Source of the DNA: Protoeuglena noctilucae
Taxonomy: Eukaryota
Assembly (NCBI GenBank): GCA_958009085.1
Contig: OY253690.1
Coordinates: 310,001 to 374,000, forward strand
DNA length: 64,000 nt
Reading direction: 5' to 3'
Part shown: positions 5,883 to 64,000 of the stretch, in pieces
Position numbering within the stretch: the stretch's first letter is position 1
Layout of the letters: every line of letters begins with the position of its first letter
The notes under the pieces: model-generated
Database searches by the model: none
The model's input: the letters and a program-made list of their open reading frames with translations, nothing else
What the model was told of the DNA's origin: nothing
Translations under genes and position numbers: made by a program

Positions 5883-8802
<2,920 letters not shown>

Positions 8803-40833: not shown

Positions 40834-41821
40834 GTCACACGAATCCCATCCTGGTGAACGCCGGTCGCCCCACTTGGGACACACTTGCCATCCGCAGTAC
40901 CCACAGTCCACCTGGAAAACTAGTCAGGCAGGGTTGACACCCCCAACTCTGGCCCGTACACGCCATGGCTGTCGGGCTGACGGCACGAATCGCATACTTA
41001 TACAGCTGGTTGTCATAGACGACGTTCGTGCGCTTGTCCACCACGTGTGTCTCCGTGCCCGGCAGCCGAAACGACACCGACACCAGGGGGATGCACAAGT
41101 ACTGGCCCGCCTTCACGACTGACGCATGCCTCCTCAAGGGCATCTTTGTGCCCGACGAGAACATCAACCCTTTCAACACCCTCACCAACGACGGACGCGA
41201 GCAAAGGTGCGCGCAGCTTCCCTTTGCAAACCCGCAGCGCACAGCCGCTCACACTACGACAGACGCTACCCCCTATTCCCCCAAACCCCAGGCATCACCT
41301 CCCTCATCGAGGTCGACAAGAGGTACCGCATTAACACCTCCGCTTTCCAGTCCTCGCCGAGCCCCAACCAGAAGAGCCTCCTCTTGCGCCCACGGCGCGA
41401 CCAAGGCCGACGTGGACCGCATCCTCACCGAGATGACCCACGACGCCGCCACGCCCAAGGCAATCCACGACCTACCCCTGACCCGCGATGACGCTGACGA
41501 TGACTGACGCGTATGCCACTGCATGCCTAGCCCTGCTGCTAACCTCCCATACACGCAATTGACCCTCAAAACCCACATCCTCCTTCATAATCCCTCCTGC
41601 GCGACTAAGCCGGGGGCCTGGGCCCCCCGGTCCTGATGTCTAAGAAGTGGATGTGGATGTGGATGTCAGGGCCCTCGCCAGTGTCTGTGACGGACGTGCC
41701 AGCCTCTAGACGGGGTGCACAATACCTGATTACGCCAGATCCTCGAGGGCACATCATTCCGCGTGCTCACATCATCACCAAGTGCTTCCACATCACTAAA
41801 GCCGCTGGACATAGGGTTTAG

Positions 41822-43827: not shown

Positions 43828-43974
43828 CAGAGAGAGCAACGCGGCGCAAGGGATGAGGACTACCGGAGGAGGGGGGGGTTCTCGGGGTCGATATCCATCC
43901 TTGAAGGCGGCGAGGACACGCTAGTCGTCCACTGGTCAGGTGAGAAGAGAGCGATCCTCAAGGCATCCGCGAGC

Positions 43975-44174
43975 NNNNNNNNNNNNNNNNNNNNNNNNNN
44001 NNNNNNNNNNNNNNNNNNNNNNNNNNNNNNNNNNNNNNNNNNNNNNNNNNNNNNNNNNNNNNNNNNNNNNNNNNNNNNNNNNNNNNNNNNNNNNNNNNNN
44101 NNNNNNNNNNNNNNNNNNNNNNNNNNNNNNNNNNNNNNNNNNNNNNNNNNNNNNNNNNNNNNNNNNNNNNNNNN
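43975..44174. other. Assembly gap (200 N)
   Basis: Run of N. Confidence 1.
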
Positions 44175-44240
44175 TATCGACCCCGAGAACCCCCCCCTCC
44201 TCCGGTAGTCCTCATCCCTTGCGCCGCGTTGCTCTCTCTG

Positions 44241-46246
44241 ATGCGGATGTGTGACAGGCTGCTCCTCCTGCTGTGGCTCCACGCCGCGTAAGATGCGCCG
44301 CCGCGGGGTCCGGGACCCTATTTCTTCCACAGCGTCGACAGGACCACTGAAGCCCATCGACCTCGACCTTGCAGGCTGTTTGCTGTGGCTGCGGGGGCCG
44401 TGAGGCAACTTACCACAAGCATCGTGGTGGCGGGACAGGCTTTTTACTTCTCGTGGGAGGCCACCGAATTTGTGGACAATGCGTTCAAGCGCTTTTTGGA
44501 CGGGATCCCAGCTTGCCCAGCATGCGAACACTTCGCTTCCCTCACGCGTCAGGCGGTGCGCCAGGTGATGGGTATGTTGTGCATGTGGACCTGCCCCGAG
44601 CTGCGCCGGGGGGCCTTTGCCTCACTCTAACGTCCTCCCGCTCGTCGCAGGCCGTGGAAGAAAAGCGGATTCCCGAAACGATGATTTGGCCCATGTTCGT
44701 CACTGACCACGCTATGCACAATGAATGGACCTGCGCAATCCCGCTCTTCGGCACTGAAGACGCGTCGGAGCGTATTCGTGGCACGCTTTCAGAGGTGTGA
44801 GCACTGGGTTTCATGTTAGCTGGAAAAGGCCGAAGGCCAGGCCAGCGTCACAGAAAAGCGCTTGCGATTTGCTGTGTGGAGCGGAGTTCGCCACTGGGCT
44901 TATGGAAGCGACCGCCCTGGAGATGGGTTTCATGCCTCTGGTCAGATTCGACGTCGCCTTGCCTGGGCATGCCCAGCCCCTGACCTTCCGTCTGTGGAAG
45001 GGCGAGAGGCTGGCCGAGGCTGTGTCGGCCTTCCTGGCTGGGGCAGGGGCCGACGCTGCTACAGCAGACGGGGTGGCGCTCCTGCGTCGTGCAGGTGCGG
45101 GCCAAGAGCGGGCACAACGTGCATGCGCGTCGCTCCCGCCACCCCGCACAGTGTCTGACGTGCCCTGCGTGACTACCCGATGCAGAGCACGAGGTGGCGA
45201 GTGCAGGGCTTATGCAGCCACCCCCGGCGCACTGGCGCCTCGCAGCAAGCTATCCGAGGGGCGGGTATGAGCTGGACCAGGTTTTCTACCTTAGACACAA
45301 CGTCTGGCTCACGGGGGCAAGTGCCACCTCAAACAGTGCGATGGCGATGGACGTCGACTTTGGCATCATTCTCCACCACAAGCACCCCTTCTGCAACGGC
45401 CACTACTACCACATCATGGAGTGTCTCCTGGGTCTCTACGCCTGGACCCGGGAATACGGGCCGGGTCGTGAGCCCCTGGTCGTGGTGGTGGACCCCAGTT
45501 CGTACAATGCCCGTCTGCACGACTTCTTCGTCTCAGCTCTCTTCCCTGGCGCCGTGATCGTCACGGAGGGCCGCGTCCACCTTTTCGCCGCGGTGGTGGC
45601 GTCCAAGGACGGCATCGGCGCCAACCCGCCGCTGTTGGCGGCCAGGCTCAACAAGCACCTGGAGCACTCGGTCGGCGTCGTGGGGGCGTGGTTCCCGGAG
45701 TTCCTGGCCGCCGTGCATGCCGCCGCCGGCGCGTCCCCCCGGCCCCGGCCCGCGAGCCCCGGCGAGGTGCGCGCCGTGTACGTGCGGCGCGCCATGAGCC
45801 TGCGGGAGCTGGGCGACGAGGACCTGGCGCGGCTGGCGTCGGTGATGCTGGAGGAGCACGGGGTGGCGCTTGAGGTGGTGCGGTTCGAGGCCATGACGGT
45901 GGAGGAGCAGGTGCGGCTGTCGGCCGGGGTCGACCTAATGATGGGCGTGTACGGCAACGGCCTGACCAACCTGCTGTGGATGCCGCCGCACGGGGCGGTG
46001 CTGGAGCTGTTTGCGGCCGACTGGCACTTCTACGACTTTCAAGAGCTGAGCGAGATCAGCGGGCACCTGTACAGCGGGGTGCAGGAGGGCAACCCGCATC
46101 CGTACCGGCGGGGGTCGCAGCGAGAGACGCAGTACGGTATGCTAACATTTGGCCCAACCTCGCTGGATTGGGAGCTTGTGAGCCACGAGTTAGCCTTCCT
46201 GCTGGCGCGCATCATGGCATGTTGTGGTGGCCCAAATGAGCACTAG
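44241..46246 (+). CDS. GT61-like glycosyltransferase (copy 4) with the GVHG motif changed to GVYG
   Basis: Mirror of copy 3, but reads LMMGVYGNGL, YDFQELSE and SQRETQYGMLTF. Confidence 0.78.
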
Positions 46247-46576
46247 CTAAACCCTATGTCCAGCGGCTTTAGTGATGTGGAAGCACTTGGTGATGATGTG
46301 AGCACGCGGATGTGCCCCCCCATGCCTGTGTTTCTACGTCGCGATGCATCCTTCAAGCTTATGTCGATCGTCAGTTGCTGCAGCCGTCCCTCGGGGCGCC
46401 TCTCGGGCACCCCTGCGATCCCCGTCTCGGTGCAGCCGTCCCCTTCCGAGGGCGCGGCTGGGTTTGCCCGAGTCATAGGTATGCGTATGCATAGCGGTAC
46501 TCTCCCAGCTGCCATCGCGGTCACAGGATGGGCGTGAAACCCGCGAAAGACGCGCCTCACTCGGAGGACTTAGATC

Positions 46577-49700: not shown

Positions 49701-50189
49701 TAAGCCCATCGCTGCCTCCATAGCGGCCCGCGAGCGCCCTTGGCATCCTGCGCTTGCAGCTGACTTTTCCAGCTCCCGGCGCATTTCTGTGACTTTACGC
49801 TGATCGATACGCGTGCTTCGCTTCCTAGTCCTGCGCTCTGCATCGGCGAAATCGACATCGGACCGCCGAGGTGGCGCCCGGGGTTGGCGCAAGCAGCAGT
49901 GGTGGGGTAAGACCAGCGCCAGCGCAAAACTTTTTTGGCCATTTGGAAAGCTAACGGCGAGACTCGAACTTTCGACGCCTGACGAAAAAGCCCTTTGAAA
50001 CGCGAACTGACAGCGCCGAAAACGCCAGAAAACAACGAAACGACGAAAATCGCCGTTCGAAAACGCGAAATTTCGAACAAGCGCTTCGCGGGACAGACAG
50101 CGGTCGGGGTCGAGGCCACGACCTGCCGACAGGCCACTCTGGAACGCGAAGGGGCATGCAAATTTCCGAACGACCCTCATCCGAATCGG

Positions 50190-50657
50190 ATGCTCCTGGC
50201 TGCGATCATGGGTGCCGCTCGTGACCGACCCGCCTCGATGCCCTTCCATCACCTCGAGCGGCACATCCTGGGGCAACTCGAGCAGAGGCCGCGCCACGGA
50301 TACACCATGGAGAGGGCGCGTGGGTTCCTCGCGTCGGAGCAGGGCCAGGCGTTCATGGCGTACGCGTACTGCCTCGACAGCTGGCACCGGTTCCGGCCCA
50401 TCGTGGACTACTGCAGGGGGGTGCGCATCCGGGAGTCCTTGGAGGATCGGGTGGGGCGCGATGGGGACGATGGGTTGGGGTGCATGCTGTGCCATGGAGA
50501 GATCGGTCCATCTCCCGCTGCATTCTTGCCCTGCGGGCACAGGGTCTGCTGCCGCAAGTGCAGGGATGATGTGTACCACTTGATCAAGGCCAGATGCCCG
50601 AAGTGCTGCCAGCGCATCTTCCAGTACGCCATCCGTGTGAAGAATTCACAGATGTAG
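50190..50657 (+). CDS. C3HC4 RING-finger protein (155 aa, intronless)
   Basis: CMLC...PCGHRVCCRKC...CPKC. Confidence 0.8.
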   Translation: MLLAAIMGAARDRPASMPFHHLERHILGQLEQRPRHGYTMERARGFLASEQGQAFMAYAYCLDSWHRFRPIVDYCRGVRIRESLEDRVGRDGDDGLGCMLCHGEIGPSPAAFLPCGHRVCCRKCRDDVYHLIKARCPKCCQRIFQYAIRVKNSQM

Positions 50658-50727: not shown

Positions 50728-51195
50728 TCAACCGCAGAGGCGAAAACACCCGGCCACCTTCTCGAACGCCTGCTCCGCCATGTCCTCCAGGTCCTCGGCC
50801 GACATCCGCTCGATGGCCCGGCGGGCGGCGGGGCCCACGGCCTTGGCCGCTCCCGCCTTCCTCAGCGAGTAGGCCAACCCGGCCGAGTCCCCGGCCCCGG
50901 CCTTGACGGCGTGGGCGAAGGCCGCGACGACCGCCTCGAGCTTCGAGAACGGCCGCAGGCCCCGCACCGCCCGGTGCTGGGACGCCGCCACGAAGGCGTC
51001 GTGGCGCGCGTCGAGTGGGCTCATGTCGTCGTCCGCCAGGGCGCCCAGGAGGCTCGCCAGCGCGGCCGCCCGGGTGTCCTTGTCGGCCGCGGCCCCATGG
51101 TACAGCTTGACCAGCTCGGCGAGGTAGCCGGCCGTCGGCTGGGTCAACTTGGGCGCCAGCTTTTCCTGCCAGTCGAGCGCGAGGAGGTCCGCCAT
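50728..51195 (-). CDS. Hypothetical helical protein (155 aa)
   Basis: ATG 51195 (MADLLALDWQEKL...), high GC3, part of the co-oriented viral gene array. Confidence 0.7.
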   Translation of the reverse strand: MADLLALDWQEKLAPKLTQPTAGYLAELVKLYHGAAADKDTRAAALASLLGALADDDMSPLDARHDAFVAASQHRAVRGLRPFSKLEAVVAAFAHAVKAGAGDSAGLAYSLRKAGAAKAVGPAARRAIERMSAEDLEDMAEQAFEKVAGCFRLCG

Positions 51196-51218
51196 GGTTG
51201 ATTCTTGACCGCCCCGTT

Positions 51219-51473
51219 TTATTTCTCGGCGACGGCGTGCCGGGCCGAGGCGGCGGCGATTAAATCCGCGAGCTTCCGCTGTCCCTCGTCCCGCGGCGCC
51301 TTGTACTCGACGGGGTACTTCTTGCCTGGACGCAGGGGTTTCCACAGCGAGAGCCCGCCCGGCTGGTAGGGCCCCCGCACGATCTGGGGGGTCTTGTCGA
51401 GGCGGTCCCGCTCCGAGAGCCGCGGCCACGACACGGCGCCGGTCACTTGGAGTCCGAGCGGCTGTCTCTGCAT
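51219..51473 (-). CDS. Hypothetical protein (84 aa)
   Basis: Fills the gap between neighbours. Preceded by the T-run motif also seen before the capsid and integrase genes. Confidence 0.6.
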   Translation of the reverse strand: MQRQPLGLQVTGAVSWPRLSERDRLDKTPQIVRGPYQPGGLSLWKPLRPGKKYPVEYKAPRDEGQRKLADLIAAASARHAVAEK

Positions 51474-51507
51474 GACCTCGGGGCGGGGAAAAAAAACGGA
51501 CGGGCGG

Positions 51508-52668
51508 TCACTCCGTCTGGGCCAGCTCGCCCGTCTCGGTGTCGATCGAGATGGACTTCGTCACCTCCAACGCCACGAGCAGCATCGAGGCGGCCGTGGT
51601 GCCGGCCACGTGGATGACCAGGGGCGAGGCGATGTCGTACGTCGACGTCCCGGACACCAGGTTCGTCGCGGCCGCCCCGGGGAGCTGCATGTTGTACACG
51701 CTCGCCCAGAACTCCGACCGCCAGTTGTTCGTCGTGACGTTCAGGCTCTGGATCCCGCCCACGCCGGAGGGACCGTCCTGGGCCAGCGCCATGTCCGTGG
51801 CGGTCCGGATCTCGTGCTTGGCCTCCTGGAGAGCCCACCCGTTCAGCAGCATGCCGCCGAGTTCGGCGTTGATGGTCCCGGCCGTCTCGAAGGTGCTCAG
51901 GTAGAACTTGCTGGTCGTGGTCTGGAACGCTGGGTCCACGCGGAAGGTGATGATCTTGTCCAGGCTCAGAGTCGCCTTCGTCATCGGAAAGTCGATGCTC
52001 GTCGTGAAGCTCGGCGAGACGAAGCTCGAGAAGTGCTTGAAGGGTAGCTTGAACTGCTTCACCGAACGCAGCGCCCGGCGGTACGTGTCCTGGGCGAATT
52101 GCACACAGTCCATGACCAGGTACGCGTTCGAGACGCCGGCCACCGTGCCGCCCGTCGCCGTGCCGATCACGTTGGGGTCCGCCAGCTGGAGCTGGAGCAC
52201 TGTGTTTCGGAAGAGCGAGAAGTCCATGTACCGGTTGTGGCTGCCGGACAGCGCCCCGTAGGCGAATCCCTGGACGACGGCGGGGCCGTTGAAGGCGTCG
52301 ACGGCGAATGTCTGCGGCAGCGCCGACTGGCGGTACGTGGGCCAGGTCAGCTGCTTGAGCTGGCTGACCACCTTCCCGTACCGCTGCAGCTGGGTGACCG
52401 AGTACCCGGAGACGGAGACGTCGACCTGCTGGATGATGGCGTCGGCCACGGGGATCGAGTACGCCGTCGTGCCGGCGTTCATCGAGAACTCGAAGTAGAT
52501 CTTCAGCGAGCGCAGGTCCGCGATCACGGGGGGGATGTTGAAGACGACCGACTCGCCGGCCGCCTTCACGCCGGACGCCGTCCACGGCACCCGGATCGTG
52601 GAGCGGCTGATGTCGTCCATCAGCCGCTGTGCCCGGAAGCTGAGGACCTTGGGGAGTGCGTCGGACAT
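51508..52668 (-). CDS. Putative double jelly-roll major capsid protein (386 aa)
   Basis: MSDALPKVLSF...GESVVFNIPPVIADLRSLKIYF...IIQQVDVSVSG...LQLQLAD...VTKSISID. Size, beta-rich pattern and context fit Polinton-like virus MCPs. Confidence 0.75.
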   Translation of the reverse strand: MSDALPKVLSFRAQRLMDDISRSTIRVPWTASGVKAAGESVVFNIPPVIADLRSLKIYFEFSMNAGTTAYSIPVADAIIQQVDVSVSGYSVTQLQRYGKVVSQLKQLTWPTYRQSALPQTFAVDAFNGPAVVQGFAYGALSGSHNRYMDFSLFRNTVLQLQLADPNVIGTATGGTVAGVSNAYLVMDCVQFAQDTYRRALRSVKQFKLPFKHFSSFVSPSFTTSIDFPMTKATLSLDKIITFRVDPAFQTTTSKFYLSTFETAGTINAELGGMLLNGWALQEAKHEIRTATDMALAQDGPSGVGGIQSLNVTTNNWRSEFWASVYNMQLPGAAATNLVSGTSTYDIASPLVIHVAGTTAASMLLVALEVTKSISIDTETGELAQTE

Positions 52669-52711
52669 GGGCTTCTGCCGGTCCGGCAGAGAAAAAAAGC
52701 GGTGCGACGCG

Positions 52712-53686
52712 TCATTCCTTGGCCCGTTTGATCTCGTCACGCCGCAGCAGCCGGCGCGTCCCGGAGACCCGGTAGCTCCCGCCATCCACCTGCTTGACGA
52801 CCCGCGGCGTGACGTCCCAGACCCCCTTCGACCGCTTCGACAGCGGCCCCTGCGCGCTCGGGAGCATGACGAGCACGCGGTCGCCCTCGCGGATCGGGTT
52901 CTCCTCGGGGGGCCCTGGCTCGCCGACCCTGCGGTAGGCGCGCAAGATCCGGAGCTCCTCCCCTTGCGCCGCCCTCTGCCAGGTCTTCCCCCACATGGGC
53001 GCGTCGGCCGCCTCGTTCGGCGGCATGCCCGTCGTCGCGTTGTCCCGCTTGTTGTACGCCGTGACGACGTCCGCGAACACCTCCCTCCACGTAGGGTTCT
53101 GCTTCAGCTTCTGGCGCCGCGCCATGACGTGGGCGGTCTTCGTCCGCAGCACTCGGATCATGGCCTCGACCTGCGGCGCGTGCTGCTGGACGATCAGGCG
53201 GATGCCCCGCTCCTTCAGGAACGCCCGCCCCTCGTTCGACGACCACGCCCCCTCGCCGTCCGCGATGATGCAGTCCCACTTGTGTCCCTCGTCCAGGATC
53301 TTGCCCAGCCCCTTCAGCACCTGGTCCCTCTCCTTGGACTGCAGGTCCTCGTAGTACAGCTTGCGGCTGAGGCCGTCGACGACCAGCAGCAGGTACTTGG
53401 AAGCCGCGCCCTTCGTGAAGACCTTGTTCAGGCCCAGGTCCTCGTTGGTCCTCGCGAAGTCGATCAGGTCCATCGACGCCTCGCGGCCGCCGTAGCGGGC
53501 GGGGATGATCCTGCGCGTGGGGGCGTCGGGCTTGTCGAACGGGGTGTCGGTCTTGGCGAGGTGCGCCTCGACGTCCTGCGCGGTCACGTTCCCGTTCAGC
53601 CTCTTCTTCGCTTCCACCAGGAGCTGCTTCTGGCCAGTGACCCCCTCGTCCTGCAGCTTGTTCAGGACCTCCTCGATGCTGGTCAT
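52712..53686 (-). CDS. Retroviral-type (rve) DDE integrase, Polinton/Maverick-like (324 aa)
   Basis: SMDLIDF, KYLLLVVDGLSRK, IIADGEG, QVEAMIRVL, WREVFADVVTAYNKRDNATTGMPP and IREGDRVLV. Confidence 0.92.
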   Translation of the reverse strand: MTSIEEVLNKLQDEGVTGQKQLLVEAKKRLNGNVTAQDVEAHLAKTDTPFDKPDAPTRRIIPARYGGREASMDLIDFARTNEDLGLNKVFTKGAASKYLLLVVDGLSRKLYYEDLQSKERDQVLKGLGKILDEGHKWDCIIADGEGAWSSNEGRAFLKERGIRLIVQQHAPQVEAMIRVLRTKTAHVMARRQKLKQNPTWREVFADVVTAYNKRDNATTGMPPNEAADAPMWGKTWQRAAQGEELRILRAYRRVGEPGPPEENPIREGDRVLVMLPSAQGPLSKRSKGVWDVTPRVVKQVDGGSYRVSGTRRLLRRDEIKRAKE

Positions 53687-53739
53687 CCGTGTCTCTTCAA
53701 GGGAGCGCAGAGAAAAAGGGGGGTTTGTCTACACAGCGC

Positions 53740-56700
53740 CTAGGACTTCTTCTGCAGCGCACCGAAGGGCGCGTTGCACCCGCGGCACGCCGGGCGCAGG
53801 TCGGTCTGGCTCGGGTCGTGGGCGGCCTGGTCGTCGATGCGGTCGAGCTCGAGCAGGGCGATGTCCGTGCACCCGCACGCCAGGCACCGGAAGCCGTGGC
53901 GCTTGAAGAGCTCGTGGATCTCCGACGCCGTGACGCCGCGTCCGGGGCGCCCCGCGTCCTTGTCCTGCTGGTTCAGCCGCTTAGCCATGGCGTCGAAGTG
54001 CTTGTGGAAGCCCCCGCTGACCTCGGCGTGGTCGATGGCGATCCGGAGCTGGTCCAGGTCCTTGCACCGCGTGATGGCCGTCCACACGAGGCGGTCATTG
54101 TTTGGCCAGTCGGCGCTCCAAGCGAGCACGATGTCCTTCTCGATCGTCGACCCCTGGAGCGCGTGGCTCGTGTAGCCCCCCTCGATGCGGAAGTTGCGCC
54201 GCACCTCTTCCATGCTGCGGAACGTGACCTCGACATCGTCCTCGGCCGCGAACGTCACCTGCCCGGACTCGTCGACGTCGGTGATCTCGTACGTCTCGTT
54301 CATGATGAAACTGCTGAAGCGCTTGGTATCCCCCTTGAACACCCACCTCCCCCCGGTTTGCGCCGCGTCCTTGTCCCTCCGGTTGACGGCGTGGCACGCG
54401 TACGCGTTGCTGGCGGCCACGACGATCTCCTTGGCGGTGTCGATGTTGGCGACCGTGCATGTCGGGATCCCAAACTTCTTGGCGAACGTGACGGGGTCCA
54501 GGGTCTGGCCCGAGTCGATGTGATCCTTCATGGCGAGGAGCTTGGCGTGCTGCTGCTTCGGCAGTCGCTTCATGACCAGGAGGAGGCACTGGACGGGGAA
54601 GAGCTGACGCACCGCGTCCTCGTATAGCGCGTCGTTGTGGGCGTCGTCGATGGGCTTGTTCTGGCGCGGGTCGCCCGTCGCGATGAAGCGGATCTCCGGG
54701 TGCTCCTCTATGTCCCGCTTCAGCACCTCCAGCACGGGCAGCGGCATCATGTAGATCTCGTCGATCATGACGGCCTTGAGCCCCTCGATCTTGTACCCGG
54801 GCCGGCGGACCTTCTGGTCGAAGACGCGCTGGCCGAACCACTTGGTGGCCGTGTACGTACGCCACCCGGCCTTCCGGTGCCCCTTCAGCAGCATGTGGGT
54901 GGGGGCCACGACCACCGACTCCTCGGGCTTCAGGTTCTTGAGGGCCGTCCACGTCTTGCCGCTCCCGGGCAGGTCCGAGACGATGGCGATACGGTGGTGG
55001 GCCGAGAGGTCGATGCCCGCCTTTTCCTCGTCTGCCGTGAACGTGAGCCGCTGGACGGGGCTCGGCGCCGGCGCCGCCATCTGGTACAGCCGGGTCGCCG
55101 TCGGGTCCATCGTGTAGCTCTTCGACAGGAGCTGCTGGCGCTTCGTGGGCCAGATGCCGTGGGGGGTCGCCGCCCGCCGCGTGGGGGGCTTGAAGGACCC
55201 GATGTCGCGGACGGACGGGTGGGGGTCATCCGGCTCTGTCACGGGCTCCATCGTGGGCGTCGCGGGCGGCGGCTGGACGGGCACCGCGATCCACGGCGTC
55301 CGGGTGAGCATGTCTGGGTCGGCGATGAACTCGTCGCCCGGCTCGGTGCAATCGTCGTCGTCGTCCTCGTCGGCCTCCGCTGCCCCGCCCATGTCGAGGG
55401 GGAGGTCTCGCACGTACAGCTCGTCGACATTGACCCCGAGGACCCCGTAGGCCTGGAGGTCGAAGGCCTTCTCCGCGAGCAGGGTCTGGGCCATGCAATA
55501 GACGGCGTCCTGGACCAGCGTCCACCCGTTGTTCGCCGGGACGCTCTTGTGGAACGCCATCAGCGTCCACCTCTTGTCGACCTGGGTCTTGTCGCCGCTG
55601 AGGAGGTCCTCCAGCATCAGCTGGCCCAGCTTGGGCATTTCTGCCCGCTTGCCCTTGGCGGCGTGCCCGACCTTGACGACGTGGCCCCCGTCCTTGGCGT
55701 GGTCGCGGGCGGCATACGCCTGCCGCGGGACCGTGCAGAGGAAGCCCTTGGTGACCTTCGACGCCTTGCGCCCCGACGTCCCGATGGCGGCGTTGACCAT
55801 GTGCTTCTTCTGCCCGTCGGTCAGCCCGTCGCTCGTGAGGACGGCGTCGACGTGGCGGCGGGCGCGGAGCACGAGCGTCTCCTTCGGGCACAGCTCTACC
55901 ACGGGCGTGGCGGTCTCGCCCGTCTTGTCCCTCCAACGCTTGAGCTGCCACCCCATCTTGCGGCTGACCTTCCCGCGCCAGAACAGCTTCCCGTGTGGCG
56001 TGTCGAGGTGCTCGAGCGGGACGTCGACGATGTAGGCGGTGTCCTCGAGGATCTCCGCGTCGGGCTGCACGAGCGTGGGGAGGCAGAAGGTCGACAGCAC
56101 CATGACGGGCAGGGGCTCGCGGAGGATGGACGTGTAGAAGCGACGGATGTCCAGCGCGTAGAAGCGGTCGGGGATCTCGTCTACGAGCTCGATCCGAGCG
56201 GCGGGGACGGGCTGGGCCGCGTCGACGACGTTGAAGAGCATCGCGCCGGCTGCCTCGCACCACTCTGAGTAGGCCCTCGGTGGGCACACCGCCTTGAGCA
56301 GTCGCGTGTTGAGCTCCTCGTACAGGTACCCGTTCTCGGCGCCCTTGAGCTGGAGGGCGTCCTCGAACACCTCGTCGCTCCTCTCCGGCAGCGTCACCGT
56401 CACGCGGGCGCGCTCCTTGCGGTCGTCGCCGACGGCGTACTGGATCCACCACGTGAAGCCCGTCACCCGCTCGCCCTTGTGGTGTACCTCGAGGACCTGG
56501 TGACCCAGCTCCCGCAGGCGGTGAATCATGGCCATCAGGTGCTCGAACGACGGGCACAGGTAGCGGCCCGGCGCCTTGACGGCGAGGAGCTCCTCGGCGG
56601 TCTCGAGGCGGCCGTGGAGGATCGAAGCCCCCCGCGGAGGCGCGATGGCCCGAGGCGGCTCGGGGAGCACCGACTCGGGGACCGTCCGCAGTGGCACCAC

Positions 56701-58228
56701 CTTGTCGCCCTGGACGCGGAAGCGGCGGGCCACGCTCATGCGGACGACGGGCCACGCGTGGTTGTCGTGCACGAGGATGACGACCATCCTGGGGGCGGCC
56801 CTGTCCGACTTCTCCGACATCGTCACCTTGACCTTGCCCCGCTTCGTGCACGTCATGGACACCGTCACGGCCTTGCGCACGCCCGAGTCGAGGACGAGGC
56901 CGCTCCACGCCTCGACGACGGCCACGTTGCAGACGCCCTGGAACGCGGGCACGATCTTGTCCCCCGGGATGGCCTTGCCCTTGAGCGTCTCGAGGACGGC
57001 GAGGTACTCCGTGTGCCGCTCCTCGCACTGCATCCTGGCCGCCTCGTAGACGCACCCCTCCGACGGGCACGCCTTGGCCACGGGCGGTTTCTCCACGTCG
57101 TATGGGGTCAGCTCGCAGTTGAGCCACGACTTGTCGGGGTCCGCGACGACCATGTTGCGGAGCCCGAAGCCCACGTACCACGGCCCGATGGCCTCGATCC
57201 TGATGCACGCGCCGTCCGAGCTCGACCCCGAGTCGTGGTGCTTGTAGCGGTCCAGCCGCTCGAGCAGGTCGGGCGCCACCGTCTTGAGCGTCGTCGACAG
57301 CTCGGACGACGTCTCGGCCTCGAAGGCGGGCTGGTCGGCCTCGTCGGTCGGGACGGGAGATCTTGTACACGTGGCCGACCTGGAGCCCCAGCTCCTCGAT
57401 GCGTTTGGTCACGGGCACCTCGGCCGCCCCCGACTTCCACCGCCACGCGCACAGGTGCTCGCCGTCGACGACAAGGAGCTCGACCGTCTCGATGTTCCTG
57501 TCGACGACCTGCATCCAGTCCTGTCGCATCAGGGCCGCCGCGTTCTTGTGTCCGAGCGCCTCGCGGAGCTCCTCCGTCGTCTGGGGGTTGCCGAGGACCG
57601 CGTACGCCGTGGCGTCGCCCCGCCGCCCCGAGACCACGTGGGCGTCGAGGTTGACGAACCCGTAGACCTGGAAGCCCACGCCGCGGATCTTCGACTCCGT
57701 CTCGGCCCGCGCCCGCGCCCGCTTCGCCGACTCGAGCTCGAGGACCACGTAGCGACCCGGCCCCTTGCGGTTGACCGTGTAGCCGGCGGGGAGCTCGAGG
57801 ACGGCCTTGGCCTCGTCGAGCGTCTGGGGGTCGGCCTGGCGGAGCGCCGCGTTGGCGCCGCGGACGTCGAGGGGCTGCCGCGCCTCGTCGCCCTTGCGGT
57901 AGAAGACGGGCCCCTGCTCTTGCGGCTGGTCCGGCTCGTGGGCCTGGATCCTCCCCCCCTCGAAGACCTGCCGCGCCTGCTCCTGGAAGCGCTCGACGCG
58001 CTTCTCGCGGACGGTCGGCTTCCGCACGCGCCACGGCGCGCCGTCGCCTTCTCGAGCCACCGTGTAGCCCTCGGGCAGGCCGTCCGGAAAGCGCGCGAGG
58101 ACGGCCTCCCGCGTCGTGTCGGGTGGCAAGCGCTCGAGGTCCCGGTTGATCGTGTCGAGCGATCGGGATTCGACCTGGCCGATCGTCCGGCCGGTCACGC
58201 GCTGGAATCTCGTCGACGGCTTGGGCAT
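53740..58228 (-). CDS. Replication polyprotein: N-terminal domain, vOTU-like protease, divergent family B polymerase, SF1 helicase and HNH-like domain; one frameshift near 57356
   Basis: GCVYEAA...ILVHDNHAW; ALDIRRFYTSIL, KKHMVNAAIGTSG, GVNVDELYV; DLPGSGKT, MIDEIY, GDPRQNKP, TSHALQGSTI, WTAITR; CLACGC...LDRIDDQAAH...ACRGCN. Confidence 0.85.
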
Positions 58229-58476
58229 GGCTCCTCGACCTCAACTCCACGCAATGCGTTGATTTTCTGCGCTACAGCGAGGGCCGAAAATTCTCGCGGG
58301 GGCCGGCCGCGGGGCACGGGGCCCACCACGCCCTCCCCGAGCATCTCGCGCGCCCGCTTCCGGAGGCGGTACAGCCGCTGCGCCACGCGCTTGTACTCGT
58401 CCCGCCCCGCCTCGCCGGCCTGCCGCATCAGGGCGGCCTCCAGGTGGAGGAAGGCGCCGAGCGTTAGCGTCAGCAT
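58195..58476 (-). CDS. Small basic hypothetical protein with an AT-hook-like PRGRP
   Basis: YRLRKRARE...PRGRPPR. Overlaps the polymerase start by 34 nt. Confidence 0.5.
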   Translation of the reverse strand: MLTLTLGAFLHLEAALMRQAGEAGRDEYKRVAQRLYRLRKRAREMLGEGVVGPVPRGRPPREFSALAVAQKINALRGVEVEEPCPSRRRDSSA

Positions 58477-58548
58477 GTCGTTCGTCTCACCAGATACACG
58501 TTGTCTTGGAAAAAAGAACTCGTTCGCCGGGGGCGCCTTTTCCGGGGT

Positions 58549-59061
58549 TCACCAGTCGCCGTACGCGGTCCGGATGTACAGCCGGGGGTCGTCGCGCCGG
58601 GCGGCCTCCTGCAGGCGGTGGATCACCTTGGGGCGGTCCTCCGGGGCGGCCTCTGCGTACACCGGGTCCTCGCGGATCGCGGGGACCTTGCGCTCCCGGA
58701 TCGCCGCGAGCCGGGCCCGGGCCTCCGTCAGCCGCTTCTCGACGTCGTGCTCGCGCGCCCTCACCTCGAGCTCTCGGGCCTCCAGCTCGTTTTTAAGCAC
58801 GTTAAGCTCCGCGATGGTGACGTTTCGAGACTGTTCCGACAGAGCCTTCCGGACCGTCGACGGGGGCGGCCCTGACCCCGACTGAGCCTTCTTCGCCGCC
58901 AGCGCCTCGCGGGCCTTCGCCGCTCGCTCGCGCATGAGCGCCAACTGGGCCGCGTCCCGCTTCGGCTCGTCGGTTGGCTCGGGGGCCGCGGCGTCGTCAG
59001 AAACATCTGGCGTTTCAGGCTCGGGCGCGGGGGCCGGGGGCGCTGACTTCTTTATCGCCAT
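58549..59061 (-). CDS. Coiled-coil hypothetical protein (170 aa)
   Basis: AQLALMRERAAKAREALAAKK and a heptad-rich ELEARELEVRAREHDVEKRL. Confidence 0.7.
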   Translation of the reverse strand: MAIKKSAPPAPAPEPETPDVSDDAAAPEPTDEPKRDAAQLALMRERAAKAREALAAKKAQSGSGPPPSTVRKALSEQSRNVTIAELNVLKNELEARELEVRAREHDVEKRLTEARARLAAIRERKVPAIREDPVYAEAAPEDRPKVIHRLQEAARRDDPRLYIRTAYGDW

Positions 59062-59079
59062 CTGTCCCTGACTTAGAAT

Positions 59080-59472
59080 TTAATCCAGGAACACCTCCCG
59101 GATCGTCAACAAGATGATCGTGTCGGCCGTCCGGTTCGCGGCGACCCCGTCGACGTCGACGAAGCTCAGCGTCAGCGTCGTGCCCCCAGTGAAGCGGCAG
59201 ATGTACGGGAGGGTCGGCCTGGTGATCTGGCCCCCCGCGATGACCCTCCGCCCGCCCCCGGTCCGCAGGTCGTTGCTCACGTTGGGCACCAGGTCGTAGC
59301 TGACGAGCAGGTCCGTGGCCCGGGTGTCCCCGACGACCGTCTCGATGATGACCTGCAGCTGGCTCCGGCGCGCCTCGAAGCGGCTCACGGGGTCGTACGG
59401 AAGGACGCACGCGTTCGAGCCGCTCGGGACGTACCCGGCGTAGCTGTAGGTAGCGATGGGGCCGCCGTCCAT
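59080..59472 (-). CDS. Small beta-rich protein, possible minor capsid (penton)-like (130 aa)
   Basis: C-terminal LTLSFVDVDG...IILLTIRE pattern resembles jelly-roll minor capsid termini. Supported by context. Confidence 0.5.
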   Translation of the reverse strand: MDGGPIATYSYAGYVPSGSNACVLPYDPVSRFEARRSQLQVIIETVVGDTRATDLLVSYDLVPNVSNDLRTGGGRRVIAGGQITRPTLPYICRFTGGTTLTLSFVDVDGVAANRTADTIILLTIREVFLD

Positions 59473-59495
59473 TTTCCCTGGCGCTAGAGAATAAG

Positions 59496-62400
59496 ATGGC
59501 GGCGTGGAACGGCGTCTACGCGCGCCAGCTGGTCGTCGACGACGCGGGCGCCGCGGACGGCGACTACTTCAAGTACCAGGCCGCCACGCGCAAGCTCGTC
59601 ACCGACAAGGGCGCGCTCTCCGGGCGCGTGATGGCCCTCGAGACGGCCATGTCGACCGTGGGCTCGAGCGGCGGGACGGTGACGCAGGGCCCCGCGGGGA
59701 CCGTCGCAGTGGGCTCCGTGACGACGGGCTCGAGCGCCAGCGTGACGAACTCCGGGACCCCCACCAGCGCAGTGCTGGACTTCGTGCTGCCCCGCGGCGC
59801 TCCAGGCGCCTCGGCGACGATCGCCGTCAGCTCGACGACGACGTACGGGAACGCGGCCACGCCGGTGGCCGTGGTCAACGCGGGCACGCCGCAGGCGGCC
59901 GAGCTCCAGTTCACCTTCCCGGACCTGAACGCGCTCGTCAACCCGGACGAGTCGGTGCAGGCGTACCACGACCAGCTCGTCACGGACCTGAACGTGCAGA
60001 TCAACGAGAGTTTCTTCGGCCCGATCTGGGACGCCATCCCCGGGTCCGAGACGCTCCCGCAGAACATGACGGACGGCGAGCTCATCTCGGCCATCCAGGC
60101 GGTGCGGCTGGCCAACTACTTGTACGGGAAGCTGAAGGGGATGCTCAACGCCCGCAAGGAGCTCGAGGCGCAGATGTCGGCTTTGTCGGAGTTCTTCGTC
60201 AAGTTCGACGCCCCGCCCGGGGCCTTCGCCCTCTTCAAAGGGTACCAGACGGGCACGTGCGACGGCGCCTTCTACTGGCAGCGGACCCAGCGCTTCCAGG
60301 ACCCCGTCGCCCCGCTCCGCTGCCTGGCCGACAACGGCGACGTCCTCGTCGAGATGACGAAGCAGCCGAGCTACAGCTTCTCGCTGTACGGTCCCCCCCT
60401 CGAGCTCGCCTCCACGCAGGCCGGCGCCAGCTCCAGCTACACCAGCCTCAGCCACCCCGCGACGCTCCGGACGACGGGCGACACGGTGACGGTGAAGTCG
60501 GCGGCGGGGCAGCTCCTCGTGACGGACACGGGCGTCGTGGCGAGCGACAAGCTGACCGTGTCGGGGGCTTCCCCCAGCCTGGTGGTGGCGGGCGCGGACC
60601 AGGCCCCGCTGCTGACGGCGTCGGCGACGGCGGCCACGTCGACCGTCGAGAGCCTCGTGCCGCTCACGATCAAGTCGACGGCGTCGCCGACGCTGACCGT
60701 CGCGAGCGAGGACCCCCTCGTCGACCCGCTGCTGAAGGTGGCGGCCACGGACGGGGTGAACTCCCTGTCGCTCAGCTCGAGCGCCGTGGCGGGCTACATC
60801 GAGTCGTCGAACGACCTGTCCGTCAAGTGCGGCGGGACCGTCGTCATGACGGCGGGGCCCACGGGCGTCAGCATGCTGGGGTCCACGCTCAGCACCGAGG
60901 AGACGACGATGATCATCCACTCGGCGGACGCCGACTGCGTCAGCTTCACGCCGACCGAGACGGTCTTCTCGGCCGCGCCGATCGTGTGCCAGTCGGCGTA
61001 CTACGTCTCGGTCGACCCCGCCAGCAAGCTGGTGACCCAGGCCCAGCTCGACGAGCAGAAGGCCAAGACGAGCACGACGACGGGCTCGGACGTCGCGTCG
61101 TCGGCCGCCAACCTGGGCGGCGACCTCGGCACGCTCTTCGGCTCGAGCTTCGACTCGCTCGGGGCCGCCGCCGTCGGCGCCATGGGGGGCGCCATGGCGG
61201 CCGTGGGGCTCAGCATCCGCAGCGGCACGGACCCGGGGACGGGGGCCACCACGTACCAGGTGGTCCAGCAGCCCGTGTCGGGCGGCATCGCCGTCGAGCG
61301 CATCCTGATGTTCGACACGAACCCGCTGGCCCCCTCGCTCGTGTACGTCATGGACGCCACGGGCCTGGACTGGGCGTACGTCAAGAACGTTCCGGCCGCC
61401 ATCGCGGGGTACACGGGGACGATCGCGGAGTCGCAGGTCACCGGGCTGGTCGCGGACCTCGCGGCCAAGCTCGACGCCTCCACGGGGGTGATAGCGCAGA
61501 GCCAGGTGACGGGCCTCACGTCCGCATTAGCCGGCAAGCTCGACGCGGCAACGGGCACGATCGCGGAGTCGCAGGTCACGGGACTGGTCGCGGACCTGGC
61601 CTCCAAGCTCGACGCCTCCACGGGGACCATCGCCCAGAGCCAGGTCACGGGGCTGACGGCCGCCTTGGCGGGGTACACGGGGACGATCGCGGAGTCGCAG
61701 GTCACCGGGCTTGTCGCGGACCTGGCCTCCAAGCTCGACGCCTCCACGGGGACCATTGCCCAGAGCCAGGTCACGGGGCTGACGGCCGCCTTGGCCGGCA
61801 AGCTCGACGCGGCCACGGGCACGATCGCGGAGTCGCAGGTGACGGGGTTGACGAGCGATCTCCAGGGCATCAACAGCCAGCTAGCCAGCCTGGGGGCCAG
61901 CTCGGCGGGCGTGGGGGTCAGCAAGCTGGACGTCGAGACGGTCACGACGAACGGAGCGACGCTGAGCCTGACGAAGTCGAGCTACTTCGCGCCCGGTATC
62001 GTCACGCCCACGGGCTTCTTCCCCGGCGTGCACGGGTTCGCCATGACCTACCCCGCGAACCTGGCCCAAAACAACGGGGGCCAGATCAACGCCTCGGCCG
62101 TCGACGCATCGGGCAACTTGTATGTGTGCGTGTACACCGCGATGGGCTCCTCGACGACGACGAACTACATCAAGAGCCTCAACGGGGACACGAGCCTCCA
62201 GGTCGCGGTGAACGACGCCAACTCTTCGGGCGCCGCGCCGTACGTGGCCAAGTTCGACCCGACCGGCACCCTCTTGTGGGCGTGGAAGCCCCTCGACAAC
62301 CACTCGACCGTCTCCTCGAACAACGCCACATGCGTCGGCGTGGAGGTGCAGTCCAACGGGCACATCCAGTATGTCTTCAGCCTCCACTTCGGGGACTTCG

Positions 62401-64000
62401 ACTCGTTCAACCCGGACGGGACTCTTCGGACGTCCGGCTTCGTCAGCGACCGATGCATCGATTACGTGCAGCTCACCGTGAATAGCGCGGGGGCCATCGT
62501 GTCCTTCACCACGCCGGTCTCGACGAACGTCGGGGCGGCCACGGGATACAACGCCTGGTTCCCCGAGACGATGGCGTGGAACGGCAAGACCCTCATGAGC
62601 ATCACCACGGCGTGGGGACCCAACGCGTACACGACCTCGCCCACCCGGCTCTACTTCGGCAACACGGGGCCAATCGGCTACTACAACGCCGCCTTCGTGT
62701 ACCTGAACGATGACGCCGTCGCCATGATGGCCAACCCGATCCAGCTCACGGCGTCGAGCGAGCAGCTCGAGGTGGCCGGGATGACCACCGACTCGTCCAA
62801 CAACCTCTTCGTCAGCCTGCTGTACTACGGCGGCGGGGGCTCCCGCACCATCAACAACCTCTCGAGCAACTCGTCCTCTGGGCACACCGTCACCCTCCCG
62901 GCCGCGTGGTGCAACGTCGTCCTCTGGTACAATTCGTCCGGCGTGTACGTGGGCACGCCGCTCATGATCACCACCAACGCGAACGCCATGCTCGACATCG
63001 AGTGCGACGGCTCCGGAAACATCTACGGCTATTGGGCCACGTCGGACGCGAGCGTCACCGTCGGCGGCGTCACCGCCACCAGCAAGTACACGCCGTCCGG
63101 GTGGCTGGTCAAGTTCACGCCGACGGGCACCGTGAGCAAGCTCGCCTCGTGCATCGACGCCTCCGCCCTGAGCAGCACGTGGTTGGACTACAACCGGCGG
63201 CTCATGTTCGACGCCACCAACGGCCTCATGTTCCTCTGCCTCCAATGGGGCGGGACGGCGACGGGGACGGCCCTCACCAACCTCGACGGCTCCGCGAGCT
63301 CCGTCGTGAGCCCCAACCGTCCCGGCGGGACCGGCGCGAGCATCTTCGCCCTCAACTGCTCCACCGACAAGTGGGTTTTCGCCTTCACGCCGCTCGGGGT
63401 GGCGACCGGCCACCTCACGTCCGTGTACCAGAGCTACCGCGCGGCCCACGGCAAGCTCCTCGTCAACGGCTACGTCTCGACGGACCAGACGTCCTTGCAG
63501 GTGTACAACGGAGACAAGACGTCCACCACCTCCCTCACGACGGACTCGGCCGCGTACGGCAACTCGACGTACCAGCCCCTCCTCCTCGCCTACTCGTACA
63601 ACGCCACGCCCATGTCGGCCACGCTCCCGCTCCCGTCGCCGTCGTCGGGCAACTTCCTCGAGAAGACGCTGATCATGCAGCCGGGGCTGTCGTACGTGCT
63701 GACGGAGCAGAACAACGCGGGCGACAACACCCGGACCATCCCCACGGCGGCGACGGGCCTCACGGTCGTCCAGTACTACTACGCCGGCGACGCGTGGAGC
63801 CCCGACTTCTCCACCGTCGACCTCGTCAACACCGTCGTCTACGACAGCTCCTCCACCACCACAACCGTCTCCAACACGGACGCCGCCACGCTCAACGGCC
63901 TCGCCTCGAGCCAGTTCGTGAGGTCCGACGTGGCGTCGGGCGTGTCGTGCGCCTCGTCGACCCGGGCCTTCGCCGTAAACAACCAGGCGGGCGGTTTCCA
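59496..64000 (+). CDS. Giant fibre/receptor-binding-like protein (>1500 aa, open at the window end)
   Basis: ATG 59496 (MAAWNGVYARQLVVDD...) with no stop to 64000. Contains VAVGSVTTGSSASVTNSGTPTSAVLDFVLPRG, 7x IA(E/Q)SQVTGL repeats, AVDASGNLYV/TDSSNNLFV/CDGSGNIY blades and DAATLNGLASSQFVRSD. Confidence 0.85.
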   Translation, partial: MAAWNGVYARQLVVDDAGAADGDYFKYQAATRKLVTDKGALSGRVMALETAMSTVGSSGGTVTQGPAGTVAVGSVTTGSSASVTNSGTPTSAVLDFVLPRGAPGASATIAVSSTTTYGNAATPVAVVNAGTPQAAELQFTFPDLNALVNPDESVQAYHDQLVTDLNVQINESFFGPIWDAIPGSETLPQNMTDGELISAIQAVRLANYLYGKLKGMLNARKELEAQMSALSEFFVKFDAPPGAFALFKGYQTGTCDGAFYWQRTQRFQDPVAPLRCLADNGDVLVEMTKQPSYSFSLYGPPLELASTQAGASSSYTSLSHPATLRTTGDTVTVKSAAGQLLVTDTGVVASDKLTVSGASPSLVVAGADQAPLLTASATAATSTVESLVPLTIKSTASPTLTVASEDPLVDPLLKVAATDGVNSLSLSSSAVAGYIESSNDLSVKCGGTVVMTAGPTGVSMLGSTLSTEETTMIIHSADADCVSFTPTETVFSAAPIVCQSAYYVSVDPASKLVTQAQLDEQKAKTSTTTGSDVASSAANLGGDLGTLFGSSFDSLGAAAVGAMGGAMAAVGLSIRSGTDPGTGATTYQVVQQPVSGGIAVERILMFDTNPLAPSLVYVMDATGLDWAYVKNVPAAIAGYTGTIAESQVTGLVADLAAKLDASTGVIAQSQVTGLTSALAGKLDAATGTIAESQVTGLVADLASKLDASTGTIAQSQVTGLTAALAGYTGTIAESQVTGLVADLASKLDASTGTIAQSQVTGLTAALAGKLDAATGTIAESQVTGLTSDLQGINSQLASLGASSAGVGVSKLDVETVTTNGATLSLTKSSYFAPGIVTPTGFFPGVHGFAMTYPANLAQNNGGQINASAVDASGNLYVCVYTAMGSSTTTNYIKSLNGDTSLQVAVNDANSSGAAPYVAKFDPTGTLLWAWKPLDNHSTVSSNNATCVGVEVQSNGHIQYVFSLHFGDFDSFNPDGTLRTSGFVSDRCIDYVQLTVNSAGAIVSFTTPVSTNVGAATGYNAWFPETMAWNGKTLMSITTAWGPNAYTTSPTRLYFGNTGPIGYYNAAFVYLNDDAVAMMANPIQLTASSEQLEVAGMTTDSSNNLFVSLLYYGGGGSRTINNLSSNSSSGHTVTLPAAWCNVVLWYNSSGVYVGTPLMITTNANAMLDIECDGSGNIYGYWATSDASVTVGGVTATSKYTPSGWLVKFTPTGTVSKLASCIDASALSSTWLDYNRRLMFDATNGLMFLCLQWGGTATGTALTNLDGSASSVVSPNRPGGTGASIFALNCSTDKWVFAFTPLGVATGHLTSVYQSYRAAHGKLLVNGYVSTDQTSLQVYNGDKTSTTSLTTDSAAYGNSTYQPLLLAYSYNATPMSATLPLPSPSSGNFLEKTLIMQPGLSYVLTEQNNAGDNTRTIPTAATGLTVVQYYYAGDAWSPDFSTVDLVNTVVYDSSSTTTTVSNTDAATLNGLASSQFVRSDVASGVSCASSTRAFAVNNQAGGF
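61410..61862 (+). repeat. Coding tandem repeat, 7 units (mostly 69 nt / 23 aa, one 57 nt)
   Basis: TGTIAESQVTGLVADLASKLDAS alternating with TGTIAQSQVTGLTAALAGKLDAA. Confidence 0.9.

Follow-up and report, generated by a model that had tools for sequence, protein, structure and literature searches.

The 64,000-nucleotide stretch analysed here (positions 310,001 to 374,000, forward strand, of contig OY253690.1 in the Protoeuglena noctilucae assembly GCA_958009085.1; hereafter the window) ends within a long plus-strand gene, whose product we consider, with a probability of roughly 60%, to be the homotrimeric virion fibre of an integrated polinton-like virus (PLV). The gene, referred to as the fibre gene, opens at 59496 and continues beyond the last base of the window. 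Its parts within the window are as follows.

59496..64000, plus strand: fibre gene, codons 1-1501 of 1796, recognised by an open frame, codon periodicity, a matching stored protein and RNA-library contigs over parts of it
59496..59576, plus strand: conserved N-terminal tail, residues 1-27, of the form M..WNG..R...NGD..Y
59685..59930, plus strand: tandem pair of ~45-aa units (VTTG..SVTNSGT..AVLDF.PRG type) at residues 64-145
61161..61217, plus strand: Gly/Ala-rich hydrophobic stretch, residues 556-574 (Kyte-Doolittle value of 1.59 over 19 aa)
61404..61880, plus strand: seven 23-aa SQVTGL shaft repeats, residues ~637-795
62004..63611, plus strand: predicted beta-propeller, residues ~837-1372, mapped from residues 92-626 of the relative P0004
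63885..64000, plus strand: start of the predicted trimer-forming C-terminal region, residues 1464-1796

Between the ATG at 59496 and the last base of the window, the frame comprises 1,501 codons and not a single stop. The stored protein of 1,796 aa is identical to it (100% identity over 100% of the window-encoded query), and the end of the gene is therefore expected approximately 886 nt past the window. Length by itself is weak coding evidence here, because overlapping shadow ORFs reach 993 and 1,000 aa in this sequence of 65-70% GC. That the frame is coding follows from its codon periodicity, the identical stored protein, its homologues and its profile matches. The GC fractions at first, second and third codon positions (GC1, GC2 and GC3) are 0.56, 0.53 and 0.96, with GC3 values of 0.87-1.00 in each 300-nt bin from 59.4 kb to the window end. 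A shadow-ORF artefact is thus ruled out by periodicity, homologues and profile matches, and the open frame at 59496 is a real gene. An earlier, sequence-only reading of this DNA had proposed a hidden frame of more than 1,500 aa that runs to the window end without a stop and encodes a mosaic protein of fibre type. Both proposals hold, the first with a full protein of 1,796 aa and strongly periodic codons, the second in view of the modules, homologues and domain plan described below.

Contigs assembled from three metatranscriptome runs cover parts of the gene (59098-59583, 60336-61433, 62402-63338 and from 63238 to beyond the window end) with 0-1 differences, so that the frame, as had been presumed, is transcribed. 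The same runs gave next to no cover on the flank at 47.2-49.6 kb. On the minus strand, an RNA contig contains two introns (58267-58490 and 58653-58764) whose boundaries were checked and are canonical GT..AG, and poly(A) sites were found at ~52066 (plus strand) and ~53683 (minus strand). Since transcripts of neighbouring genes are spliced at canonical introns and carry poly(A) tails, the RNA libraries contain real mRNA of the element. Spliceosomal introns and polyadenylation in high-GC3 element genes are unusual for a virus-like element.

The domain plan was derived from three-way and six-way protein alignments together with motif counts. The N-terminal tail is common to long forms of the protein (the fibre itself, P0002, with 1,796 aa; P0003 with 1,740 aa; P0022 with 1,780 aa) and to short forms (P0004 with 1,067 aa, P0008 and P0029). 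Kyte-Doolittle hydropathy revealed no hydrophobic, signal-peptide-like segment at the N-terminus. The VTTG..SVTNSGT..AVLDF.LPRG motif of the sequence-only reading corresponds to two tandem copies of a ~45-aa unit, which match phrog_21765, a PHROGs family annotated as of unknown function, with an E-value of 6.8e-13 over residues 64-145. When residues 55-160 were searched among shorter proteins at E<=0.01, the unit was present in 66 of 2,292 candidates. Precomputed Pfam assignments name Collagen in 17 of these carriers and no family at all in 40, and nine carry tail-collar, Phage_fiber_2, Peptidase_S74, T7 tail-fibre N-terminal, PTR, pectate-lyase-like or Peptidase_G2 domains. Family names were confirmed by a scan in 16 of the 66 carriers, a biased sample mostly picked for having a precomputed domain. 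One protein, P0033, contains many tandem copies of the unit. Because its carriers hold collagen, tail-fibre and tailspike domains, the unit is a module from which trimeric proteins of fibre or tailspike type are built.

In residues ~146-636 no family was recognised. This region includes the most hydrophobic 19-mer of the fibre (residues 556-574, GAAAVGAMGGAMAAVGLSI), which is conserved in P0003 and could be a membrane-active or glycine-zipper segment. All seven SQVTGL repeats noted earlier were found, starting at residues 646, 669, 692, 715, 734, 757 and 780 with a unit of 23 aa and one spacing of 19 aa. At the DNA level they show periods of 69 and 126 nt, the latter with 95% matches, and the region matches phrog_18412 (annotated as minor head protein) with an E-value of 1.1e-9. 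Of the third motif put forward earlier, the ADTL.G...SQF.RSD type, the string itself is present in the fibre (TDAATLNGLASSQFVRSD), but no search gave it statistical support: the segment alone (residues 1440-1501) had no tblastn match among 50,697 phage records up to an E-value of 10. Its resemblance to phage proteins therefore stays putative.

For the middle of the fibre (residues ~837-1372), a beta-propeller of the 7-bladed type is supported by modelling of a relative. P0004 shares 55% identity with the fibre over this region, and its AlphaFold 2 (AF2) model was built from a 5-row alignment. The model is all-beta with a predicted local distance difference test (pLDDT) score mostly of 70-90 at residues ~95-625, the C-terminal 440 and the N-terminal 90 residues lying below 50. 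In a Foldseek comparison of this model with the PDB, entries of CylK were the best matches (E-values of 2.9e-13 to 2.1e-12 at 16% identity), and further matches comprised many propellers, including polysaccharide lyases, GH145-type hydrolases and sialidases (E-values of 5e-7 to 8e-6). A VIA structure search, which is independent of Foldseek, aligned 373 residues with the CylK propeller (Z 24.8, rmsd 3.5). Its other rows among the matches listed were mostly WD40-type and other propellers at Z 19-23, covering model residues ~92-626. Furthermore, the blades match P0009, an SBBP-repeat protein (PF06739, E-value of 1.8e-43), in 11 stretches with an E-value of 3.2e-22. The Pfam SBBP profile itself reached only 10.9 bits on P0004 (E-value of 0.46; cut-off 20.5) and did not match P0002. 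The model of P0004, the structural matches to CylK and the blade likeness to P0009 together support the propeller proposed earlier from D.SGN.Y-type blades, a pattern that occurs three times in the fibre.

The C-terminal part of the fibre divides into a conserved region (residues 1464-1690) and a tip (residues 1691-1796). Modelled as three copies, residues 1464-1796 gave scores of 0.80, 0.78 and 0.80, compared to 0.00 for the best of three controls. The partner pLDDT was at least 79, at least 96% of the contacts agreed between runs, and more than 1,100 confident contacts extended almost continuously from residue 1465 to 1690. In the calibration, which used two copies and not three, 21 of 30 solved one-chain pairs and none of 23 single chains reached the mark. 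The trimer modelling suggested earlier thus supports a predicted intertwined homotrimer of residues 1464-1796. Residues ~1592-1670, beyond the window, contain a ~75-aa unit (NNP.ML.K.YG.GD.YGL.Q...LY) that is common to the uncharacterised proteins P0010-P0014, in some of them in multiple copies.

Identity to relatives differs strongly along the protein, with 47-72% in residues 1464-1690, 26-55% in the propeller and 14-21% in the tip, which is the most variable part of the fibre. P0003 is close to the fibre in the N-terminal half and the conserved C-terminal region, whereas its propeller is only 26% identical, compared to 55% for P0004. Since P0003 and P0004 resemble the fibre in different modules, the family is a mosaic. 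Short forms do not contain the tandem units, residues ~146-636 or the SQVTGL repeats. Tail, propeller and C-terminal trimer are all that these forms have and hence probably represent the minimal working unit. The number of SQVTGL repeats, a comparison that had been proposed for element copies, is seven in P0002, four in P0022, three in P0003 and zero in short forms. It is constant within the P0002 cluster, with seven repeats in all four members counted, including both 1,459-aa forms, and repeat columns that are invariant across all eight members. The family is small: with P0004 as query, a search of 1.84 billion representatives returned ten proteins at E<=1e-3 and four at 1e-30, query included, and in the strict sense the family comprises five clusters (P0002, P0003, P0004, P0007 and P0008).

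Upstream of the fibre gene, the window contains further parts of the element in which it resides.

59473..59495, no strand: divergent intergenic spacer, 23 nt
59080..59472, minus strand: neighbour gene, 130 aa, called penton-like in the sequence-only reading
58549..59061, minus strand: small Ala/Pro/Glu-rich ORF
53740..58228, minus strand: helicase gene region, consisting of a 1179-aa ORF (53740-57279) and an upstream coding frame (57280-58228) in another frame
52712..53686, minus strand: rve/DDE-type integrase, 324 aa
50767..52066, plus strand: spliced, polyadenylated gene with introns at ~51185-51333 and ~51658-51741
49750..50000, no strand: approximate left edge of the multi-copy high-GC3 element, indicated by a depth step in run X2, a contig break at 49731/50001 and a shift in GC3

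The integrase matches rve (E-value of 0.0043) and, over residues 5-225, the IS481-family DDE transposases (E-value of 2.8e-7). The helicase ORF, located directly upstream of it on the same minus strand, is of superfamily 1 (SF1) type, with matches to AAA_30 (E-value of 2.1e-5) and to the Dda-like phrog_325 (E-value of 2.1e-4) and weak matches to endonuclease VII/HNH at its C-terminus. Neither protein had a PDB match by sequence. The fibre's element hence carries both an integrase and a replication helicase, a pair that serves as a mark of PLVs. At ~57280-57420 the GC3 signal in the helicase region switches frame. An RNA contig spans this site without a gap and the X2 DNA contig is identical there, and the switch could reflect two genes, a frameshift or a retained intron. 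The 23-nt gap to the divergent minus-strand neighbour was measured as described earlier (59473-59495). The 130-aa neighbour itself (59080-59472) had no match in Pfam, PHROGs or NCBIfam, and the PDB sequence search gave only a chance-level result (E-value of 0.22). The ORF pieces of the spliced plus-strand gene at 50767-52066 and the small neighbours were likewise without a match in the three family databases. A 425-aa minus-strand ORF (51508-52785) was dropped, as it overlaps the plus-strand gene that the RNA joints favour; it had no PDB match. A RING-finger ORF (zf-C3HC4_3, E-value of 1.6e-6; 49995-50657, plus strand) lies where the multi-copy region seems to begin on its left side. An RNA contig has a joint there (50030-50084), with 13 different nucleotides in place of 53 nt of the window.

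From ~50.7 kb onward, GC3 is 0.93-1.0, compared to ~0.83 in host genes. The P0002 cluster comprises eight near-identical variants that are 1-12 substitutions apart in the alignment. Several of its members are present on two or more contigs, and among the longest contigs four measure 23.5-27.3 kb. We also compared public runs over 46.0-64.0 kb, among them X2, the run of a labelled organism. Its depth was ~42-63 on the flank, 144-158 at 49.6-53.2 kb, 88-99 at 53.2-60.4 kb and 145-182 beyond 60.4 kb, values that serve as a hint only because depths are not copy numbers. An X2 joint from 53237 to 60565 corresponds to a 7,327-bp deletion (53238-60564). It truncates the integrase and eliminates the helicase, the two small genes and ~356 codons from the start of the fibre gene. 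In two 1,459-aa variants, P0018 and P0021, identity begins at residue 358, which is where the joint falls. These variants are therefore explained by the deletion, and a 7.3-kb deletion derivative coexists with full copies.

Profile and sequence searches placed the protein in no named family. Pfam gave nothing above threshold on P0002, P0003 or P0004, and the profiles Collar, Phage_fiber_2, PTR, Phage_T7_tail, Collagen, laminin_G_3 and gp36 did not match P0002. The C-terminal S74 chaperone or lectin domain expected in the extended frame was not borne out by Pfam on the full-length protein: Peptidase_S74 (PF13884) had no match at E<=1 on P0002, P0003 or P0004, the full-length C-terminus being covered. 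Similarity to phages, which had been anticipated module by module, was marginal for the repeats, where tblastn of the whole fibre against the 50,697 phage records returned 14 records over residues 610-789 (35-39% identity, E-values of 3e-4 to 1e-3). It did not extend to the N-proximal units (residues 55-150 alone, no tblastn match in phage records even at E-values of 1 and 10) or to the ADTL-type segment. By sequence, the fibre had no match in the PDB. In protein-atlas look-ups, the propeller region reached 0.82 and the C-terminus 0.85-0.89, all under 0.9 and hence leads only, as are the C-terminal rows, which included Uroviricota clusters, BppL_N (16%), Phage_fiber_rpt and Mtd_N.

Taken as a PLV virion fibre, the protein would work as follows. 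The element, ~23 kb in size and virus-like, would be resident in several copies in the genome of a marine eukaryote, and the conserved 27-aa tail would anchor the trimer to a capsid vertex. Two phage-type ~45-aa units and a ~500-aa module would follow, and the seven 23-aa repeats may form an extensible shaft, the copy number of which differs between relatives. Three propellers, one per chain, could build a lateral platform at which a surface glycan is bound or cleaved. The predicted intertwined C-terminal trimer would end in the hypervariable tip, which may set receptor specificity. Overall, the interpretation given in the sequence-only reading is supported in part; its further proposals, binding to host-wall glycans or to a helper giant virus and a possible acquisition from phages, are conjectural.

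This picture agrees in many respects with what is known of PLV fibres. Excerpts of PMC12220804 state that PLVs commonly encode phage-like modular fibres of more than 1,000 aa and report a helicase-integrase neighbourhood for cryptophyte PLVs. In excerpted text of two preprints, the fibre-like Ltf of PgVV-14T was found in virions (10.1101/2022.07.28.501842) and TFP fibres are described for Tetraselmis PLVs (10.1101/2025.10.09.676808). The fibres of cryptophyte PLVs, Ltf of PgVV-14T/Gezel-14T and TFP of Tetraselmis PLVs are, as here, the product of the longest gene of a small integrated element. Like the present protein, they exceed 1,000 aa, are modular with repeats of phage-fibre type, and are presumed to be host-attaching trimers, and an rve integrase and a helicase lie alongside the fibre gene in both cases. 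In contrast to them, the fibre described here gave no match to the families Peptidase_S74, laminin_G_3, collagen, PTR or gp36 and has a large SBBP-like propeller and an unnamed C-terminal domain. It also differs in having no detectable sequence relatives in IMG/VR and no capsid module in the window. Among the literature matches listed, the PLV papers do not mention the word 'propeller', which is no proof of its absence from the literature, supplementary domain tables not being covered.

A comparable architecture exists in Gp45 of Staphylococcus phage phi11, described in excerpts of PMC4901313 as a homotrimer with an interrupted helical stem, a platform to which each chain contributes one propeller, and an all-beta C-terminal tower. 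According to the same excerpts, its trimer contacts concentrate in stem and tower, and the predicted C-terminal interface of the fibre suggests the same. Its propeller is five-bladed, whereas the best matches of the fibre propeller are 7-bladed, and it is a 636-aa protein of a bacterial virus, compared to 1,796 aa in a eukaryotic element. The likeness is architectural: the fibre is without a PDB sequence match, and Gp45 is not among the fold matches listed, which are filled by other propellers. CylK is the best structural match, and the blades resemble SBBP-repeat proteins (PF06739) through P0009. Identity to CylK is 16%, and the propeller of the fibre spans ~535 residues with long inserts. 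Endosialidase tailspikes (K1F, phi92) likewise place a propeller head, in their case six-bladed, on a trimeric stalk, as is predicted here. They carry an S74 chaperone, which is absent from the fibre according to Pfam, and had no PDB sequence match with it.

Several points weigh against a virion fibre of a PLV. The main weakness is that the window shows no gene for a capsid protein, packaging ATPase or protease; the downstream arm of the element, in which any capsid genes would lie, is outside it. The integrase and helicase matches are below curated cut-offs and therefore show homology rather than family assignment. The fibre and the fibre family alignment had no relatives in IMG/VR, nor did the helicase, and the fibre family was not found in JGI metagenome contigs, either by protein alignment or by an exact 50-nt pattern for the downstream DNA. 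The RNA contigs cannot give strand, start or level of the fibre transcript, and all three runs belong to one study. Introns and poly(A) tails of the neighbouring genes are equally compatible with an endogenous virus and with a transposon transcribed by its host. The trimer result is model confidence and not a measurement, the propeller model comes from the relative P0004 and not from the fibre's own residues, and an AF2 model of residues 1-800 (2-row alignment) was unusable with a mean pLDDT of 35, which leaves the helical look of the repeats as a hint only. Finally, Pfam detected no lectin, S74 or glycosidase family in the fibre.

Some of these points would be explained if the protein were an accessory surface or structural protein, or cargo, of a capsid-less DNA transposon with rve integrase and helicase that is transcribed by the host and never enters a virion. 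Spliceosomal introns and poly(A) in neighbouring genes, the window without a visible capsid gene, the multi-copy state with a deletion derivative and the empty IMG/VR searches all fit such a transposon. Nevertheless, we regard it as unlikely, since fibre-type modules and a predicted intertwined trimer lack an obvious role in a transposon, the combination of a constant N-terminal tail and exchangeable distal modules is characteristic of virion fibres, and introns and introners are reported in integrated polinton-like elements in excerpts of PMC12166617. An origin from a giant virus (Nucleocytoviricota), with the gene as an endogenous fragment or a recent capture encoding a surface fibre, is suggested by the ~75-aa C-terminal unit common to P0010-P0014. 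The low-complexity, Lys/Asn-rich composition of these proteins may resemble that of giant-virus proteins. However, P0010-P0014 belong to no Pfam family, P0010, P0011 and P0013 had no relatives in IMG/VR, and carrier contigs of 23.5-27.3 kb (four of the longest) together with an rve integrase fit a small element, which makes this origin quite improbable.

Even less credible is a host cell-surface adhesin or wall protein that happens to lie beside a mobile element. A beta-propeller, a repeat-rich and Ser/Thr-rich composition and transcription would suit such a protein. Against it stand the N-terminus without a signal-peptide-like segment and a GC3 of 0.96, which is like that of the element and not the ~0.83 of host genes. 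In addition, the gene is co-amplified with the element, an element deletion form truncates it, and only ten matches at E<=1e-3, query included, were found in 1.84 billion representatives. Within the fibre reading itself, the propeller might be a glycan-cleaving enzyme of tailspike type rather than a passive binder. The Foldseek matches to propeller polysaccharide lyases, GH145-type hydrolases and sialidases (E-values of 5e-7 to 8e-6) point in this direction, as do phage endosialidases, which pair a propeller with a trimeric stalk (excerpts of PMC4901313). As those matches tie with many non-enzymatic propellers, and no catalytic family or motif and no S74 chaperone was detected, we give this variant about one chance in five's worth of credence, in other words we think it rather doubtful.

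Long modular phage-like fibres of PLVs are already in print, and what is novel for a PLV fibre lies in the architecture. New are the SBBP-like propeller, the missing S74 chaperone, the unnamed C-terminal trimer domain, the tiny family and a traceable, possibly cultured host. The PLV fibres published so far would thereby be joined by one that bears a propeller. It is the fibre that determines whether a PLV can reach a given cell or helper virus, and the receptors involved are almost unstudied. The present one is available at full length and in several near-identical copies, from an organism that is apparently in culture, and is present in ocean metatranscriptomes. Its clear domain plan, foldable propeller and variable tip, together with the apparently cultured organism, make it a practical entry to recognition between element and alga. 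It may be speculated that the fibre founds an unseen class of eukaryotic-virus fibres that independently reached the design of stem, propeller platform and tower known from receptor-binding proteins of staphylococcal phages and shares its distal ~75-aa unit with possible giant-virus proteins, although we consider this improbable. If true, attachment modules would pass between a virophage-like element and the giant virus that helps it, and the small element could keep to the same alga as its helper, or to the helper's surface, while the latter evolves.

The rest of the window is eukaryote-like, with a MULE transposase, GT61 paralogues and a GAPDH split over its ORF. An inverted repeat of 2,136 nt with 99% complementarity (41758-43893 and 44175-46310) surrounds a gap of 200 N (43975-44174), and each arm holds a GT61 glycosyltransferase ORF. 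The second arm may be a scaffolding artefact, because at 46310 the contigs from three runs part from the window sequence. Host-side genes at 32522-33739 (plus strand), 6495-8192 (minus strand), 13639-14703 (minus strand) and 24279-25415 (plus strand) encode the MULE transposase, GAPDH and further GT61 paralogues. The N and C domains of GAPDH lie far apart in its ORF, in which introns are probably read through.

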